64,000 bases of DNA from a virus: IMG/VR virus record IMGVR_UViG_3300045988_046609; one strand, written 5' to 3'. Made by a program: the position numbers and the translations under genes. The notes beneath the pieces are model-generated. The model saw nothing but the letters and a program-made list of their open reading frames with translations. It had not been told where the DNA came from and searched no databases. Shown piece by piece: positions 3,681 through 62,296 of this stretch. How positions within the stretch are numbered: position 1 is the stretch's first letter; the number at the start of each line of letters is the position of its first letter.

Positions 3681-4688
3681 ATGAAAAGATACAATAATTT
3701 ATTTGATAAAATAGTAAGTTTAGATAACTTATATGAGGCTGATAAAAGAGCTAGAAGATAGAAATCACATAGACCTGAAGTAATGTTATTTGATAAGAAC
3801 AAAGACAAGTTACTTTTAGATCTACAGAGAAAACTAATAAATGGGGAATACGAAACTTCCGAATATTATGTTTTCAAAATATATGAACCAAAAGAAAGAG
3901 AAATATTTAAGCTACCATACTATCCTGACAGAATTGTACATCACGCAATTATGAATATAATGGAGCCTATATGGGTATCTGCATTTGTAAAAGGAACTTA
4001 TAGTTGCATTAGAAAGCGCGGTATACACAAAGCTTTAAAAGATGTTAAATTTGCTTTAAAGGATGAAATAAATACGCAGTACTGTTTAAAGTTAAATATC
4101 AGAAAGTTCTATCCTTCTATAGATCACGATATATTAAAAACAATAATAAGGAAAAAAATAAAAGACAAAAGACTATTAAGTCTGCTAGATGAAATAATAG
4201 AATCAGCTTAGGGAGTACCTATTGGTAATTACTTATCCTAGTTCTTTGCTAATTTATACCTTACTTATTTAGATCACTGGATTAAAGAACAAAAGAAAGT
4301 TAGATACTACTTTAGATATGCAGATGATATTGTAATATTGGGTGGAGATAAGTAGTAGTTACGAGATTTATTCTATAATATACAGGATTATCTTAATAAT
4401 AAATTAAAGTTAAACTTTAAGGATAATTGGTAGATATTTAAGGTAGATTCGAGAGGTATAGATTTTGTAGGATATAGAGTATTTCATACTCATACACTAT
4501 TAAGAAAGCGTATAAAAAAGAAATTCTGCAAAAAGATAAACAAGTTAAATAAAAAATAGAACCTAGATAAAGATACATATAAGCAAAAAATATGTAGCTA
4601 TATAGGTTGGATTAAATACTGTAATGGACGTAACTTGTTAAATAAAATGTCTAAATATAAAAAGCTATTAGAATATATTAAAGAATAA
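3681..4688 (+). CDS. DGR reverse transcriptase (7 in-frame TAG codons read as sense)
   Basis: Frame is open from ATG 3681 to TAA 4686-4688 if TAG is sense. Contains YADD (4317-4328) and GVPIGNYLS-TAG (TAG 4239-4241), where DGR RTs carry the (I/L)GxxxSQ motif. N-terminus MKRYNNLFDKIVSLDNLYEADKRARR-TAG-KSHRPEV. Confidence 0.9.
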
Positions 4689-4751
4689 TTAGACTAAGAA
4701 ACTATATATAAATATATACGTTTTATAAGTATATCAAAACAATATTATCAG

Positions 4752-48116: not shown

Positions 48117-48233
48117 TTCCCTATTTCGGATTTGAACCGACGACCTCCCCTAACATATACGAATATATAGTAATACGAATATTACATCAATATATACGAA
48201 TTACAGGATGCTCTACCACTGAGCTACTAGGGA
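48117..48233 (-). ncRNA. tRNA-like element 1 (canonical acceptor, D and T arms; anticodon arm replaced by a ~61-nt AT-rich rod)
   Basis: Minus strand: TCCCTAG-TA-GCTC-AGTGGTA-GAGC-A-TCCTG-[51 nt with 3 copies of ATTCGTAT]-TAGGG-GAGGTC-GTCGG-TTCAAAT-CCGAA-ATAGGGA-A. No U33-NNN-R37 loop found. Confidence 0.6.
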
Positions 48234-50368: not shown

Positions 50369-51016
50369 TTATCCCTGGGCTTGTTCGATAGTTACGTTTA
50401 CTTCTACCTGATCTTCGTTAGTGATCCCACACTGCCGTAAGTACTCTACTTGAGCACGATCCTGTTGGTCCATAATGTTCCGGACAGTTTCTGCAAGTTG
50501 CATGTTTTTACGGGCTTGTTCCTCATAGAAATTCAGAATAGATGAGTTATGCATCTTTAAGCATGTATTCAACTGCGGAAGTTCAGAAGGACCAAAGAAA
50601 ATAGGTCTTGTAGGATTTGTTGGATCGTTCGGCTTGGTTAATGTTGCAATACAGGCCATTACACTTTCCCGGGTTGCTTTCTGGAAATTCGGTTCAGCAA
50701 GATCAAATACCAGTGATGGATCCTGAGACTTCGGATTCAGAATTACCTTTGGATGACCGTCAAAGTCCTTTTCACAAAGTTCAATACCTGTAATATCAAT
50801 AGGCTTGACTATGAAAATCCGGACATCCTTCCGTAATGTGTTCTTGTCATTCTGAACATCTTCTTTCCATTTCAGATCTGGGTTGTGTGATACAATTGTA
50901 TAGATCTGGCTACTAAAGTATTCTCCATACTTTTTACAAACTTGCCGATATCGAGCCATAATAGAAGCTAACTCCGTGTTAGGAGTAACCATTTGTATTT
51001 TACTATTTTGTTCCAT
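50369..51016 (-). CDS. hypothetical protein
   Basis: 215-aa ORF. Confidence 0.6.
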   Translation of the reverse strand: MEQNSKIQMVTPNTELASIMARYRQVCKKYGEYFSSQIYTIVSHNPDLKWKEDVQNDKNTLRKDVRIFIVKPIDITGIELCEKDFDGHPKVILNPKSQDPSLVFDLAEPNFQKATRESVMACIATLTKPNDPTNPTRPIFFGPSELPQLNTCLKMHNSSILNFYEEQARKNMQLAETVRNIMDQQDRAQVEYLRQCGITNEDQVEVNVTIEQAQG

Positions 51017-51207
51017 AAAAAATGTTCCCTTCTTGATTCCGTACTTGATATACCAATACGGATCATTTTTAGTTTTTAAGTTAATAATAAGTTAATGCTC
51101 TCCACTGTTCGATTATTTTATAGTATTACAATAATGGTAATAGTGAATTCAATCACATAATCTACTAAGTATATTTGATAATAAATGTTAATTTATTCGA
51201 AAATATC

Positions 51208-51240
51208 TTTTGATAAATTCTCTGATAAATTTTCTGATAA
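51208..51240. repeat. three tgataaa(t) units at a 12-bp period in an AT-rich tract
   Basis: tgataaa at 51211, 51223 and 51235, resembling the tctgataagtt repeat at 43988-44016. Confidence 0.6.
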
Positions 51241-51244
51241 TATG

Positions 51245-53140
51245 CTTTAACGTCCCGTTTCGACGGTTAAGATTCAATTTTTTCGATGCTTAACGCACCC
51301 CTCACCGTTATTTTATATCGCTATTAGTTGCAATATAAAAGACACAGATCATCGACTAAGTAAGTCTACCTGGTATTTCCGTATTATCGAAATTCATAGA
51401 ATTACGGTCGTTTATCTAACGTTACCAACTCATGAGCTCATTGCTTAAAGCATGACCCACTCATACCATGCATAGGATTTGTTGTTTATAACTGCGCGAA
51501 CACGAGGATTTCCACCTCTCATCGTCTCCTTGTTGCTTGATTGTTATTACGATCAAGTTAAATACTTCGTCCTTTAATCTACCGAGACAGGGTGATAGAC
51601 GACAGGTTATTAACGAATCAGCGTTCTCTTTACGTATATATTTGCGATATATACTTTATGAGTTTCTAATGTCAGCGATAACGGTTGGCAGTCTGGGGGT
51701 GACTTATACTCCATACGGTCTGTCTTACAAATGACAATTTGCTACTTCTGTACTATCATTGGACTTCCCCAATTTCTATGTGACTCATAGCCTTCCTACA
51801 CTATGCAGTCTGATTAATAATATTAATTTATTCCCTTAGAACAGATTTAACTAGGCCGGTTCTATTCGGCATTAACTTTCAGATGCAGTAAAGTAACATC
51901 ATCTGTTCACAATCTTACCTCTCTGGTTCCAGGGTTCTAAGCTGGAGCAGCTTGGCTCTTACTTATTAATTTATTGTTTTTGACTACTACTAATATCTCC
52001 TACTCTGGAATGAGTGTGATAATCTAGTAATACACCTTTTACATATCTTGAAAGGTATAAGCTCTGCTGTTTTTAGAAGGAGTTCCAAAGCTTCTCCTTA
52101 GTATTATTTTATGTCATAATCGTACTTGCTAAAGGTACGTGACAACTAGAATCAGGGTTATTGCGCCCTCAAACCGCTTAGACATCTTTGTCTATTCATT
52201 CCTCATTCAATTATACTCACACGAACGAATAAGCACGTGAGTCACTTTAGACTTGAAAGACGGTATCAATCTCATATACCTCATCCCTTATACGTAAATT
52301 CTTTTGCGGCACGCTAGTTACGGTAGCGCACAGGATTGGCTCCTGCTCCCTGGTAATCAGTCGGATCATGGATCTGCACGTAGCTTCACTCCCCGGATCA
52401 TTGCATGTCCAGCCTTCATATCTTTACTTTGTATAAGTATGTACCATAACACGGTTATCCTTACATTAGTATCAGTAATTACTCCCTTTATATTATGAAC
52501 CAGTTATCATAAAAACACTAGAGTTAGCCTATTTTTCCAATCAGGACGTATAATTACGCTTTTGTATAAAGCGAGGTTGGAGCCCGCTTGTTGCGTTAGT
52601 CAGCCATAATATTATTCAATAATCCTTTTCCAAGGGATTATTCAAGAGCCCTTTGCTCTTGTTTCAGCATCGTGTTCATATTCCTTCTTGAGTCACATCT
52701 TGATTGACGCATACGAATATAGAGATTTCGTTCTCTTTTTGAGGATTAAGGACTTTATCTTTTACAGTTTTATTTGTTTATTGCTGCGATTCAGTCTCCT
52801 CTTGTTTGAATTAATTTGTAACTAGGGTATCTTCTTGTTGCTCCTATATTACGGGTTCTTCACTCTTAATATCACCAGACGGTTCTCATATTAACAGCGC
52901 AGGCTATTCACCCTCTCCTGCTTTCTTATACCTTTTTCACCAGCATAAGTTATTATCCTACCTTTTGAGTATCTTACGGTGTTAGCCGCTACGAAGCATC
53001 TCATAACTACTTCTTACATATTCTCGGATTCTGTCTTTTTCGGGCTATGTATAAATGAATACAAACTCCCTGACGCAGTAGTACTTAAAAACTTCCTTCT
53101 GTGACTGCCGGAGTGATTTACGCTATAGTTTTACTCCTCT
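51245..53140. ncRNA. ~1.9 kb ORF-free, hairpin-rich block: candidate large structured RNA or intron-like element (strand unknown)
   Basis: No ORF over 65 aa in any frame across 2.1 kb between two minus-strand genes. Perfect or near-perfect stems at 51247-51270, 51634-51654, 51939-51953, 52618-52642 and 52644-52660. GC is locally high (35/60 in line 52321-52380). Confidence 0.35.
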
Positions 53141-53144
53141 CGAA

Positions 53145-53609
53145 CTATGATATAATTATAGTATTTATATAGCGGTTATTATCATTAACTTTTTCCGCTG
53201 AGGGTTTATCTTCCCCTACACTAAGTTGCTCCGGTTTTATACAGAAAATTTCTCCTGAAGATAAGTTAATATTTGCAACTATTTTCTTACCTCTGCATAT
53301 ATCTACTATGCCGTTTTTTATATCATTACTACTGATATAATCAACTGGATCCATTTGTCCTGGGTCAAAACCGTCCAAGCGAACACAAATCTCACTTACA
53401 GACGAACGTAAGTACTGCTCTACGAATAAGATATTCTCGCAACTAGCTTTAGCTTGTACCTGAATTAAGTTAGTACTTTGTCCTTGCACAATAAAGTAGT
53501 TTGATTGGTCTATTACGAAATCTAAATTTCGTCTAGCTTCTTTAATGTTACGTATGATACGCGATAGACGTGCCATACTATTTAACATAATGTAATTTTT
53601 CTTATTCAT
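53145..53609 (-). CDS. hypothetical protein (TAG stop)
   Basis: ORF trimmed to ATG 53609. Stop is TAG 53145-53147, with TAA 9 codons downstream. Confidence 0.6.
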   Translation of the reverse strand: MNKKNYIMLNSMARLSRIIRNIKEARRNLDFVIDQSNYFIVQGQSTNLIQVQAKASCENILFVEQYLRSSVSEICVRLDGFDPGQMDPVDYISSNDIKNGIVDICRGKKIVANINLSSGEIFCIKPEQLSVGEDKPSAEKVNDNNRYINTIIIS

Positions 53610-53611
53610 CA

Positions 53612-54001
53612 CTATTGTTTTTTGGTAAAAGGAGAAAGTGGTTTTACATCCTCTGGTAGGTTAGCTATACTACTTACCTTTGGAAATCCTGTATTTACTT
53701 CTTTTACTTTGGTCCTGTATTTAACTATAGGTTTTACTTCTCCTGTAGTTGTTACATTTACAATTGCGTCCGTTGTTCCATTTACGGATACTTCGTGGGT
53801 ATTAATATCTACTGATACATTAATCGTATCTATACCCGCGGACTTTTTCTCTTCTGTTTTAGAATGTGTCATAGACATTAATTCTAAATATGAAGGAATA
53901 ACAGGCTGAGCCTGTACTACTTCAGTAGTATTTACTAAATTCCAGCCAATATAAATACTCGCAAAGAATATTAGTACTACTGATACGATTCTACTATTCA
54001 T
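53612..54001 (-). CDS. membrane-anchored hypothetical protein (TAG-TGA tandem stop)
   Basis: N-terminal TM segment. TAG at 53612-53614 is followed immediately by in-frame TGA. Confidence 0.6.
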   Translation of the reverse strand: MNSRIVSVVLIFFASIYIGWNLVNTTEVVQAQPVIPSYLELMSMTHSKTEEKKSAGIDTINVSVDINTHEVSVNGTTDAIVNVTTTGEVKPIVKYRTKVKEVNTGFPKVSSIANLPEDVKPLSPFTKKQ

Positions 54002-54055: not shown

Positions 54056-55594
54056 TTAAGGATCTGGCTTAGCTTTTTTTTCAACCTTATCCTCTTTTGA
54101 AGGAAACTCTCCTGTAGTAGGAGTAATTATGCCTTCTTCGTATTCTGCAAGACGATCCATAGGATCACGATACAGATTGATAATCTGGCCTATCTTCATA
54201 CGAACTTCATCTTTAGATGGATGCTGTCCTTCTGGAAAATAGTTCTGACTTACTAGATCAAACTGCTTTTTTGCAAGTTTGAGTGCTTCTTGTTGTTCAC
54301 TGTAGTCTTTATCTCCCGGTTTAGATGTTACACCGGCAGAAATAGTATTGAATAAATCATCAATATACTTTCTACCAACATTTCCAATTACTGCTTGAAG
54401 TGCTTTATCGTCAGTTGCCTTCAGATTTTCATCACTCTTAAGTTTGTAACGGAAGTTTTCTTGCAACAGTACTTTTAAAGTACTTGCAATCTGTTCTTCA
54501 CTCCAGCCACATGGTGCCATATGCTTATGTAGTAAGGAATGAGCGGAGACCGGAGAACCCTGTGCAGCAGTATATAAATATACTGTACGTCCAAGACCAT
54601 TCATTAGTGGAACACTGTTGATAATATGGAAGATCTCTTCAATCCACTCTGCTACAGTGCGATTGTCAAGTTCAATCTTCTTTTCTGCATTATCTTCTTT
54701 GTTGATACAGTATACACGATACCATTCAACTGTGTTAACAATATTAGTTGCAATATTGCGATCTTTACGCATAAGATGATCTAGGACAGCAGCTAATTCT
54801 TCAAGAGAATTGATGTCCTTAGGATCAAGCGAAATAGGTTTTGTAGGAGCCTCAGCTTTGTTTTCCTTCAACTCATCAGGAATTTTAGTATCTGGAGAAT
54901 TGAAATCAATTGCTAATTGACCTTCATTCTCTTTTCCCGGAAGTGCTTTAGGTTCAGCTAAAGTAATGCCAAGAGAATCTGCAATATCCTGCAATCGGAA
55001 GATCTGTTCAGCAGGTAGTTTACACACAAACTCACCGGCAGCAGATCGTTCTGCAAATTCATTCTTGATATCAATCATTCCAAGCAACCATACTGCGTCG
55101 ATAGATCGAGCTGTATTTGCATATGATTCTGGACTTTGGTTCTTATACTCTTCATTATTAATGAATCGTTGATAACCAACATACGCAAGCATTGCTTTCG
55201 CATCAGCAGAAGAGCGATTAGATCCAATAGGGATTCCATTTCCTATTGCAGGGATTTTACCAACTTTTTCTTCCACTTCTGGAATTATTGTAGGAATCTT
55301 TGGACTCTTCTTTCCTTTATCAGCCGTTTGTTGGGTAGGCTTCTTTTCTTCCTTTTTCTCCTCCTTCTTAGTTTCTTTCTTAGAAACTTCCTGACTCTTT
55401 TCTTGTTTAGAGTTTGCTGCAGGTTTTGGAGCAGATTTCTTCTCCTGGGTTGCTGAAGTATTATCAGCTACTTGCTGAGTATCCTCAGCTTTACTGTTCT
55501 CTGATTTAGCATCAGCTGATTTTTTGTCAGCTAGACTTACTTTTGTTGCAACTTTTGCTGCATTTCCTCCTTTATTATTCTTTGGTTTTGACAT
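54056..55594 (-). CDS. hypothetical protein with Lys/Glu-rich N-terminal region
   Basis: 512-aa ORF, relatively GC-rich. Confidence 0.65.
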   Translation of the reverse strand: MSKPKNNKGGNAAKVATKVSLADKKSADAKSENSKAEDTQQVADNTSATQEKKSAPKPAANSKQEKSQEVSKKETKKEEKKEEKKPTQQTADKGKKSPKIPTIIPEVEEKVGKIPAIGNGIPIGSNRSSADAKAMLAYVGYQRFINNEEYKNQSPESYANTARSIDAVWLLGMIDIKNEFAERSAAGEFVCKLPAEQIFRLQDIADSLGITLAEPKALPGKENEGQLAIDFNSPDTKIPDELKENKAEAPTKPISLDPKDINSLEELAAVLDHLMRKDRNIATNIVNTVEWYRVYCINKEDNAEKKIELDNRTVAEWIEEIFHIINSVPLMNGLGRTVYLYTAAQGSPVSAHSLLHKHMAPCGWSEEQIASTLKVLLQENFRYKLKSDENLKATDDKALQAVIGNVGRKYIDDLFNTISAGVTSKPGDKDYSEQQEALKLAKKQFDLVSQNYFPEGQHPSKDEVRMKIGQIINLYRDPMDRLAEYEEGIITPTTGEFPSKEDKVEKKAKPDP

Positions 55595-58445: not shown

Positions 58446-59051
58446 ATGCAAAAGTATAAATTACATAGAAGTTTAATTACTGTTATATGTGATCAATGCG
58501 GTAAAGAATATCTTAAACCTTTATCTGAGTATAAAAGAAATAAAGAATTAGGACGTCATAGTTTTTGTTCTAGATCTTGTTCTTGTAAATATAATTGTGT
58601 TCATTCATCTAATAAAATGCTAGAATATTCTAGATCAGAAAAAAATAAACAACGTTTAAGGTCTCTAAATGAAATAAAACGCTTAAAACGTCCAGAAGCA
58701 GTATTTTCATATTGCCTACGAAACTGTAGAAAACGATATAAGGAGTGTACTATTACATTAGAAGACTTACAAGAACAATGGAATAAACAAAAAGGTATAT
58801 GTCCTTATTCTGGAATATCTTTATTAGTTCCTACATATAAGAAAAATCATAATAATCCAATATATAGTGCATCAGTTGATAGAATTGATAGTACTAAAGG
58901 TTATATTCCTGGTAATATTCAATTTGTATCTACATGCATTAATTATATGAAGAATACTATGTCTGATGAAGAAACAAGGTTTATGTGTAAATGTATTGCA
59001 GAATATTTCTATTCTGAAGGGACTATTTCATCATCTGTCATTACTGCTTAA
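58446..59051 (+). CDS. HNH homing endonuclease (opposite strand to all neighbours)
   Basis: N-terminal Cys clusters (CDQCG...CSRSCSC) and C-terminal CPYSG...SVDRIDSTKGYIPGNIQFVSTCINYMK HNH-type motif. No in-frame TAG. Has its own terminator. Confidence 0.75.
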   Translation: MQKYKLHRSLITVICDQCGKEYLKPLSEYKRNKELGRHSFCSRSCSCKYNCVHSSNKMLEYSRSEKNKQRLRSLNEIKRLKRPEAVFSYCLRNCRKRYKECTITLEDLQEQWNKQKGICPYSGISLLVPTYKKNHNNPIYSASVDRIDSTKGYIPGNIQFVSTCINYMKNTMSDEETRFMCKCIAEYFYSEGTISSSVITA

Positions 59052-59152
59052 GATGTCGGACGCTCTAGCTGGTTATTAAGGAAACTATATTCCTCCAGTA
59101 GTCTCTGCACTTTTATAGAGTGTACTCTATACTTAGCTCAAGATTAGCATGA

Positions 59153-59180
59153 ATAAAGCTAGTTTTGAGCTTTATTTTTA
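59153..59180 (+). terminator. intrinsic terminator after the HNH gene
   Basis: ataaagct / agctttat form an 8-bp stem with loop agttttg, then ttttt. Confidence 0.65.
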
Positions 59181-59731
59181 GCTTTCCTTGAATTCATCCG
59201 ATTATTCAATATACATTTCTGTATAAGGGGTCCGAATTTCACAAACCCTCGTCTTACAACTGATTCATAGACCTAACAGTCAATTGTGACTATGTAGGCG
59301 ACCAAACCTACATAGCCTTTGGTCTTTTAAATTATTTTACTTATAAGTTTTGATAACTGATCATTTATAGACTAGTACAGAAGTATTACTACTCAACATT
59401 TGCTATAATGTTTGCCGATTTGATATCATAAGAATGCTATTTGCATAATATACTCTTTGAGTATAGATTCAATACTATATATTGCGCAATTATTATAATA
59501 CATCCTCACGATCTTAGGCACTTGATCAGTGGCACGTTTTCTAGTCCAACTCCAGTATTGAATAGTTCTCACTATCGTACATTTGTTTGTTTCCTGTCAA
59601 TTCAGGATGAAGCTGCTTATTGTAGATACCGATGTACATGGATCTCACCATTTGCTTTCAATCTTCTTCGGATTCTCTATAGAATTAATATCTCTATTAT
59701 TCAAGTATCTTTCCTGGACCTTGTGTGGCTA

Positions 59732-60196: not shown

Positions 60197-60435
60197 TTCT
60201 TGATAATGTTTAAAGATTGATACTATTATTAATTAACACTAAGTTTTAAATTAAAAAAAGAACTGTTCTGCATATTTGTATACCTTATTTTGCAGATAAC
60301 CCCTATCCTTCTTCTATCCTATTAGGATTGCCGTTGTATAGCCATTGTACTCTAGTTCTTACGAACTTCCATTAGGGTTCTGGTATATTTACAGTTCTTT
60401 TGGGTTGATTAGAATCCACCATACTAACAATTTAA

Positions 60436-61800: not shown

Positions 61801-62296
61801 TTTACATAGGCTTTAAATTGTTAGTTAATAAAATTGATGACGTTACTCTAGGGTATTCTAGAGTAAGAAACACATCTGTTAACGAATGATTCAAGTTATA
61901 ATACCATAACTTTGAGACTAATACTAAAATGATTTCAAATGCACTTAACGCTTTGTGTTAATAAAGAAAATCAAATTTTAACATTACTTGTTAGAGTTTT
62001 ATTCTATGACTCTCATATGTTTTAGGATTACTCCAGAGTACATACAGAAATAGCTGTCAAACTAAATCTTAGAACTCACCTGATTTTTACGTCCGCACGA
62101 TCGTAAGCACAAATACGAGTATTTCTATACTTATCTTATCGTATTTAGTACAGTATAGATATGCACTTACTTACGCCCCACAGGCTTGTCATCTTCTGAA
62201 GACTAACCTATTCTCACGAACCAGTTAGCTATAAATTCACATTTAACTATTAATCTTAATAAATCTTTGTTAAATACTACTATGCATATACTTTCT

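Follow-up and report, generated by a model that had tools for sequence, protein, structure and literature searches.

A large multi-domain structured RNA locus predicted in crAss-like phages of the family Suoliviridae

To our knowledge, few classes of very large structured non-coding RNA have been found in bacteria and phages, and each of them opened new RNA biology, the RNA-only cages of GOLLD and ROOL being an example. GOLLD (about 800 nt) and ROOL (about 580 nt) are often phage- or prophage-borne and lie near tRNA genes. OLE, HEARO, and raiA, at about 200-650 nt, are encoded on bacterial chromosomes. Among the structured RNAs of bacteria and phages, we know of only rRNAs and group II introns that are comparable in size to the element described here. 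Cryo-EM identified GOLLD and ROOL as RNA-only multimeric assemblies (PMC12286853). A covariation survey of IMG/VR intergenic regions defined 8,495 csRNA motifs of 29-151 nt; it describes no unit of ~2 kb, and crAss phages are absent from its main text (PMC10690425). Fragments of the present locus may be among those 8,495 motifs.

The window analyzed is a 64,000-nt stretch of DNA (IMG/VR record IMGVR_UViG_3300045988_046609) from a human-gut crAss-like phage. Over positions 40000-64000 this DNA shares 98.6% identity with the uncultured phage cr56_1, a Buchavirus of the Loutivirinae (Crassvirales; Suoliviridae). The plus strand carries late genes over 1-37.7 kb with TAG read as a sense codon, and the minus strand carries the genes from 37.7 kb onward. 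Stop-to-stop frames of 150 aa or longer total 17.4 kb in the 37.8 kb plus-strand block and 36.4 kb once TAG is read through, a figure that sums frame lengths, some of them overlapping, and that bears out the dense gene packing described in a first-pass annotation of this DNA. The biggest gap of the minus-strand block lies at 51017-53144. The next-biggest gaps hold a group I intron together with RAGATH-20, and a Hatchet ribozyme. Rfam matches elsewhere in the window are RAGATH-9, RAGATH-20, the Hatchet ribozyme, the group I intron (58999-59254, 85 bits), and one tRNA. RAGATH-9, RAGATH-20, and the Hatchet ribozyme are located on the minus strand of the same gene block, 6-9 kb from the gap, and Rfam found tmRNAs in relatives.

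The gene order around the gap is a sigma factor, a small gene, a gene of ~500 aa, one or two small genes, the gap, two genes of ~200 aa, and DNA polymerase further on. The immediate neighbors in the window are minus-strand genes of 155 aa upstream (53145..53612) and 215 aa downstream (50369..51016), both without a known domain. GC content rises from 0.25-0.27 at 51000-51300 to 0.35-0.47 further inside the gap, compared with 0.29-0.31 in the polymerase gene, which agrees with the patchy, locally high GC noticed in the first-pass annotation. Pfam and PHROGs searches with the neighboring proteins recognized the ECF sigma factor alone, and PDB profile searches with these proteins returned nothing. 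The conserved 512-aa neighbor has 119 homologues, none with a Pfam domain, and the alignment consensus of its N-terminal region is rich in lysine and alanine. The AlphaFold model of this protein (mean pLDDT 68) has a disordered N-terminal segment of 126 residues followed by a helical body, and a Foldseek search with the model gave no PDB match at E < 0.3. No functional clue was obtained from the neighboring proteins.

The longest start-to-stop ORFs in the gap on both strands are 65 and 64 aa, as expected from the initial statement that none exceeds 65 aa. Each of the six frames contains TAA, TAG, and TGA at high frequency. Under the standard code no stop-to-stop frame is longer than 80 codons, and the maximum is 94, 115, or 108 codons when TAG, TGA, or TAA, respectively, is read as sense, whereas a coding control of the same length has a frame of 404 codons. 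A coding frame under another code had been named as a finding that would refute the RNA proposal; reassigning any one stop codon opens none. To measure periodicity and variability, the gap and both flanks were aligned from 17 representatives (68-97% identity). The 3-base periodicity power of substitutions is 0-1.7 over the whole gap versus 10-32 in both flanking genes. Mean column variability is 0.11-0.17 over most of the gap and reaches 0.22 in a hypervariable part of it, whereas the flanking genes have 0.16-0.27. Indels of any length occur between the conserved blocks of the gap. These comparisons indicate a non-coding region in which purifying selection on the nucleotide sequence is strong, and stronger than in the flanking genes. 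The recoding of TAG in the late genes lends some appeal to a protein-coding region read by multiple reassignments, frameshifts, or many small exons, but we give this explanation almost no credence given substitutions without 3-base periodicity anywhere in a gap whose two flanks show it strongly, tolerance of indels of all lengths, and a high density of all three stop types in each frame.

The gap is conserved in 16 of 16 deposited genomes examined, and these cover all five Suoliviridae subfamilies. Some deposited annotations put small ORFs on the gap and disagree with one another. A homologous gap of 2068-2128 nt is found in eight GenBank phages of three Loutivirinae genera, and IMG/VR contains 117 distinct Loutivirinae gap sequences of 2020-2224 nt. 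Across the five subfamilies, a gap of ~1.85-2.5 kb occupies the same gene neighborhood. Its length is 2205 nt in cr115_1 and about 2050 nt in cr114_1 (Uncouvirinae); 2171, 2223, and 2037 nt in cr7_1, cr272_1, and cr131_1 (Oafivirinae); 2080 nt in cr6_1 (Bearivirinae); and 2514 nt in cr50_1 and about 2450 nt in cr10_1 (Boorivirinae). The unclassified lemur-gut phage Dulem virus 42 has a gap of 2116 nt in this neighborhood. The candidate is present in all examined members of the Delta group discussed by Yutin et al. One cultured phage of the Intestiviridae was used as a control; its early half has no gap >750 nt, and it gave no matches to the models described below. A two-motif RNA signature was detected on 9 contigs only among 185,579 bacterial and archaeal species, each represented by one genome. 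Seven of the nine contigs are 98-101 kb, the size expected where crAss-like genomes have been binned into MAGs, and the other two are shorter fragments. This distribution suggests that the RNA is phage-specific.

An alignment of 47 full-length sequences (A2) was made from sequence, and its consensus fold was calculated with RNAalifold, which returned 452 pairs in 95 helices. Standard pairs form in 95.0% of the cells compared with 36-41% when the partners are shifted by 1-3 columns. Both sides have changed at 182 of the 452 pairs versus 43-57 in shifted controls and 120 in shuffled alignments, and none of 500 shuffles attains 182. The covariation score of 0.248 compares with 0.045-0.066 in controls, and three or four Watson-Crick types are seen at several pairs. 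Alignment of syntenic relatives, the comparison on which the RNA proposal had been made to depend, thus revealed both conservation and covariation. These results predict about 90 helices in the region, many of them proven by compensatory substitutions.

The flanking proteins have diverged to 20-50% identity across the Suoliviridae, and a cross-subfamily protein alignment was too divergent for retrieving loci. A nhmmer profile search showed that distant subfamilies share colinear sequence blocks in the gap, and covariance models were therefore built. RNAalifold gave just 23 pairs for the 5' domain in the first alignment because of a clade-specific insertion. The domain was re-aligned without the insertion-bearing sequences and its structure was hand-curated to yield model R1 (window 52816-53074, 52 pairs). 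R1 matches once per genome and at full length in 50 of 50 sources with E values of 1e-8 to 1e-59, and it also matches four more genomes (cr114_1, cr6_1, cr50_1, and cr10_1). The match is always at the 5' end of the gap and on the gene strand in all five subfamilies. Model R2 (3' domain, window 51488-51773, 57 pairs) matches in the gap of 43 of 53 sources and is absent or weak in Boorivirinae. In the eight genomes measured, which represent all five subfamilies, the distance from R1 downstream to R2 is 1.06-1.3 kb, with both matches on one strand. In the R1 and R2 alignments (A6 and A8), which were fitted to the model structures and therefore inflate the pair counts somewhat while leaving large margins over the controls, 48 of 52 and 50 of 57 pairs have changed on both sides, including 6 of 6 in the R2 closing helix. 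The R1 alignment has 90.5% of its cells paired versus 38-41% with shifted partners. Model R3 (central core, window 52145-52493) was found only in Loutivirinae-like genomes, with marginal colinear matches in cr114_1 and cr10_1. Since R1 and R2 are family-wide and R3 is restricted in this way, the ends of the unit appear to be family-wide and its middle subfamily-specific in sequence. The models indicate that the 5' and 3' domains are conserved, colinear, and held at fixed spacing across the Suoliviridae, and that conservation of the central ~800 nt holds within subfamilies; one segment is hypervariable.

Read 5' to 3' on the minus strand, the element starts with a conserved leader of ~40 nt (53145..53186, UGAUAAUAACCG..AAUAAAUACUAUAAUUAUAUCAUAG) that aligns with the intergenic leader of relatives (A2 columns 1-46). 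The leader is directly 5' of the structured RNA, and in the window the upstream ORF runs into it with a 14-codon 3' extension; the proteins of relatives stop ~14 residues earlier. The extension has no counterpart in relatives, and the conserved non-coding unit therefore begins ~40 nt earlier than the gap, with its 5' boundary near 53186. The originally drawn limits, 51017-53144, hold as non-coding sequence, and the conserved unit extends about 40 nt beyond them. Elsewhere in the window the leader motif does not recur, which gives no shared promoter motif. The leader is followed by 5' hairpins at 53075..53144 (A2 helices 3 and 5-7) with an invariant (AG)UUCGAGAGGAGUA at the extreme 5' end. Helix 3 is invariant, and 9 of the 12 pairs in helices 5-7 have changed on both sides.

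The 5' domain (52816..53074, 260 nt, model R1) is closed by a GUC/GAC helix and contains the family-wide motifs GAGAAUAUGU, CAAAAGGUAGGAU, and UGAGAACCGUNUGG. An insertion hairpin of ~70 nt at 52736..52805 (A2 columns 431-502) belongs to one clade only and is present in about 8 of the 47 sequences. Next is a cluster of local hairpins at 52500..52735 (A2 helices 22-32) consisting of GGGAACGAAAUCCC, 52677-52721, 52643-52661, and 52620-52640. Compensatory changes are seen at most pairs of this cluster with 95-100% of cells paired, and the second loop switches between GGAA and UGGA. The central core (52145..52493, A2 helices 35-51) is the most conserved part within Loutivirinae. It contains the invariant blocks GUGUUAUGGUACA, AUAUGAGAUUGAUA, CUUUCAAG, GUGACUCA, and UGAGGGCGC and a 15-pair helix between 52423-52441 and 52282-52298.

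The hypervariable segment (51780..52100, A2 helices 56, 59, and 60) recombines and is still base-paired. About 229 differences separate this DNA from cr56_1, and 175 of them fall within 51700-52100. Pairs changed on both sides number 6 of 8, 5 of 8, and 7 of 7 in helices 56, 59, and 60, respectively. The 3' domain (51488..51773, model R2) has a sub-domain of ~190 nt here, or 230 alignment columns, closed by ACUGCC/GCGCAGU, and it also holds a GNRA-capped hairpin at 51634-51654 and GGUGGAAAUCC..UUCGNGCA motifs. Distal hairpins at 51431-51465, 51311-51340, and 51255-51278 make up 51245..51487 (A2 helices 79-87) and have compensatory changes at most pairs. The structured part ends near 51245. The remaining 51017..51244 (GC 0.25-0.27, A2 helices 92-95) is AT-rich and comprises a tail and intergenic sequence in which some blocks are conserved (UUAUGUGAUUGA); a hairpin at 51037-51063, immediately before the start codon of the gene at 50369-51016, is nearly invariant. 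This tail may be part of the RNA, or it may carry the expression signals of the next gene.

Most of the stems picked out in the first-pass annotation are supported by covariation. All 8 pairs of the 51634-51654 stem have compensatory changes, as do 6 of 10 and 3 of 7 pairs in the adjacent stems 52618-52642 and 52643-52661. The stem at 52303-52340 corresponds to a supported hairpin pair in 52311-52346. Two of the listed stems fared less well: 51247-51270 is weakly supported, and the perfect palindrome 51939-51953 lies in the hypervariable stretch, where the consensus fold pairs the segment differently.

Base pairing at the RNA level was distinguished from pairing in single-stranded DNA by counting wobble pairs in the helices predicted in both orientations with at least 2 Watson-Crick compensatory pairs. 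In the minus-strand reading, 42 pairs show G-U only versus 17 with A-C only. Four-base hairpin loops include 94 GNRA instances in the minus orientation versus 0 on the plus strand, and 44% of the unpaired positions are A. The excess of G-U pairs and the one-orientation GNRA loops place the RNA on the minus strand, and the pairing is accordingly assigned to the RNA level on the strand that carries all neighboring genes. Folding energy gives z-scores of -0.5 and -3.4 for the minus strand and of -1.4 and -3.75 for the plus strand. Stability by itself does not set the region apart, and the z-scores do not separate the strands.

The same measurements bear on the idea of an element acting as DNA, for instance an origin of replication or a packaging region with hairpins in single-stranded DNA. 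Such an element would fit the location of the region beside the replication gene block, the strand symmetry that Watson-Crick covariation in hairpins has by itself, and the similar z-scores on both strands. It does not account for the preference for G-U over A-C, the restriction of GNRA tetraloops to the minus orientation, or the A-rich loops. Cumulative GC skew is monotonic without an inflection in the 8 kb examined around the gap, so there is no skew switch; the AT-rich part is the 230-nt tail only. Iterons and repeats are lacking, with two-copy repeat matches at the chance level only and no repeat families above chance. We consider a DNA-level element quite improbable, and an RNA on the minus strand is the preferred reading.

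Rfam was searched to determine if the region belongs to a described RNA family. There was no match in the gap at the gathering threshold or at E <= 10, and no match at E <= 1 in the gaps of five distant relatives; this check, suggested at the outset, returned no group I or group II intron, GOLLD, ROOL, or other family. ARAGORN detected no tRNA or tmRNA in the gap, and no tandem or dispersed repeats were found there. Rfam, ARAGORN, and the repeat search agree with the early impression that rRNA, tmRNA, group II, and tandem repeat signals are missing. An identity as rRNA, tRNA array, or tmRNA was rejected for lack of an ARAGORN or Rfam match in the gap. Membership in GOLLD, ROOL, OLE, HEARO, or raiA was rejected for lack of a covariance-model match at the gathering score or at E <= 10.

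An ORF-less self-splicing intron, or a decayed mobile element interrupting a gene, is brought to mind by the group I intron at 58999-59254 of the window and by the many introns carried by crAss-like phages (PMC7886860). Group I and II models do not match the gap here (E <= 10) or in the five distant relatives (E <= 1), however, and in the relatives examined each flanking ORF is a complete gene of its own, the upstream one ending at a conserved stop and the downstream one starting at its own ATG. The position is fixed rather than patchy in each family member examined, and the size is far above that of ORF-less introns. An interrupted gene is therefore very improbable. The original interpretation had offered large structured non-coding RNA and a degenerate intron side by side; the comparative evidence favors the former, and the latter has no Rfam signal. 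The locus is real and strongly supported, and this large structured RNA locus is apparently undescribed. Full-text literature searches, in which some of the queries were unspecific, retrieved no account of it, and none was found in Yutin et al. 2021 (PMC7886860).

Our preferred explanation is a large structured non-coding RNA with several domains, about 1.9-2.2 kb long and encoded on the minus strand, as are the transcription and replication genes around it. We assign this explanation a probability of roughly 0.6 from the comparative data. The total length, domain order, and domain spacing are constant despite the divergence of the flanking proteins, which argues for one unit. Helices with support either are local or enclose domains of 150-290 nt. 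In A2, helices predicted across >500 nt are invariant, and covarying stacks >300 nt apart number 102 versus 95 in a parallel control. Long-range stacks are thus at the control level, and a single global fold is not supported by covariation.

This architecture would also suit a fixed array of independent structured RNAs or cis-regulatory elements in a polycistronic mRNA, for example processing sites, stabilizers, a cis-acting structured spacer, or a long structured leader for the downstream gene. The confinement of well-supported helices to local or domain-closing positions, with long-range helices that have no covariation support, is what such an array predicts. The domains also differ in their breadth of conservation, the nearly invariant hairpin (helix 95) is just upstream of the next start codon, and the region has no promoter motif of its own, its sigma-70-like sites being at the shuffle level. 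Independent units would be expected to come and go, however, and length, domain order, and spacing are constant though the flanking proteins are only 20-50% identical. The minus strand has no terminator-like site within the region, and no sub-region matches known small RNA or cis-regulatory families. An array is unlikely on balance, although it deserves serious weight.

For the large multi-domain RNA, a course of events can be proposed. Because no terminator-like site is present on the minus strand, the RNA would be transcribed with, or read through from, the upstream genes. It would then fold domain by domain and act in its own right during infection as a product of the early or middle operon. 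Action as a folded RNA made from that operon is the best supported part of this proposal. Its most likely role would be as a scaffold for an RNA-protein or RNA-only assembly, as proposed for GOLLD and ROOL. The leading guess, which is speculation, is that it helps to reprogram gene expression or translation, since the gene block has tRNAs, a tmRNA in relatives, a sigma factor, and self-cleaving ribozymes, and since the phage switches the meaning of TAG for its late genes. In the most ambitious version of this proposal, one RNA machine of ~2 kb would be fixed in the Suoliviridae as the largest non-ribosomal structured RNA known in phages. It would work as an RNA-only or RNA-protein assembly, be it a GOLLD- or ROOL-like cage or scaffold or a catalytic RNA, and thereby take over host gene expression, perhaps in connection with the TAG-to-glutamine switch and the tRNA/tmRNA/ribozyme toolkit. 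This version is conceivable and tentative, and we regard it as rather doubtful. The candidate RNA would provide a testable handle on how uncultured phages control infection and a new target for RNA structure determination.

Comparison with described RNAs places the candidate closest to the large phage RNAs. RAGATH-9, RAGATH-20, and the Hatchet ribozyme are structured RNAs on the same strand and in the same early block, but they are small (100-170 nt) and dissimilar to the gap. OLE, HEARO, and raiA resemble the candidate as conserved multi-helix non-coding RNAs with invariant single-stranded motifs. With rRNAs and group II introns it shares kilobase size, modular helix-closed domains, A-rich unpaired regions, and GNRA loops; unlike them, it has no SSU, LSU, or group II match, no intron-encoded protein, and no exon context. 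The sole rRNA similarity is a 5' motif that is like the sarcin-ricin loop at 11 of 12 nt, and it was not taken as a family feature because it is confined to one clade. GOLLD and ROOL are likewise large, elaborate structured non-coding RNAs with no assigned biochemical function that were recognized purely by covariation. The candidate differs from them in being carried by a virulent crAss-like family of Bacteroidota-infecting gut viruses. GOLLD and ROOL are its closest analogues in kind, and the predicted RNA, at ~2 kb, is two to four times longer than either and evolves more slowly than the proteins encoded beside it.

The window was compared with cr56_1, an uncultured Buchavirus phage, over 24 kb (window 40000-64000), and the two sequences are 98.6% identical. 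Identity to cr56_1 is ~92% in the gap alone (51017-53144), the minus-strand region that contains the structured RNA. A 400-nt segment at 51700-52100 holds 175 of the ~229 differences from cr56_1, and this concentration suggests that a hypervariable RNA domain has been exchanged by recombination.

In six sequences (L002 and L003, both 4273-4710; L212, 8249-8731; L295, 5396-5581; L292, 9442-9603; and L215, 7569-9684), the deposited annotation shows small ORFs labeled 'hypothetical protein' on the RNA locus. Their strand and position differ from one annotation to another, and they are most likely spurious gene calls. L283-L291 are contigs of ~100 kb, the size of a complete crAss-like phage genome, that lie inside MAGs labeled Gastranaerophilaceae, Bacilli, Sphaerochaeta, Segatella copri and others. 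These labels say nothing reliable about the phage host.

TAG is a sense codon in the late-gene block (window 1-37800, plus strand), where stop-to-stop frames of 150 aa or more total 17.4 kb with TAG as a stop and 36.4 kb when it is read through. ORFs obtained in this way include one of 4464 aa, which contains 39 in-frame TAGs, and two of 1571 and 1397 aa. The early block on the minus strand uses the standard code.

The RNA locus has a family-wide neighbor that encodes a 512-aa protein (54056-55594, minus strand). The N-terminal ~126 residues are rich in lysine and alanine in the alignment consensus and disordered in the AlphaFold model, and the helical body has no match in Pfam, PHROG or PDB. 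The protein may act as a nucleic-acid-binding partner. The upstream part of the same gene block carries a cluster of a group I intron (58999-59254), RAGATH-20 (59510-59607), RAGATH-9 (60256-60412) and a Hatchet self-cleaving ribozyme (62078-62203), all on the minus strand, and these elements occupy the remaining large gaps of the early block. A (permuted) tmRNA adjoins RAGATH-9 in relatives; tmRNA models gave no match within the window. Rfam scores a 117-nt stretch directly downstream of the DNA polymerase gene (48117-48233, minus strand) as a tRNA at 33.8 bits, and ARAGORN reports nothing at this site. Relatives have ordinary tRNAs (His, Arg) there, and the candidate may be an interrupted or unusual form, such as a suppressor.

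The ORF upstream of the RNA (53145-53612) ends in 14 additional 3'-terminal codons (VNDNNRYINTIIIS, window 53145-53190) that are absent from relatives and overlap the conserved RNA leader. This extension is probably a recent frame change rather than functional coding sequence. The 5' end of the RNA contains the invariant sequence AGUUCGAGAGGAGUA (53133-53147, minus strand), a motif limited to the Loutivirinae-like clade. It is identical at 11 of 12 nt to the universal sarcin-ricin loop sequence of 23S rRNA, AGUACGAGAGGA, and the exact 12-mer is present in one relative (L285).
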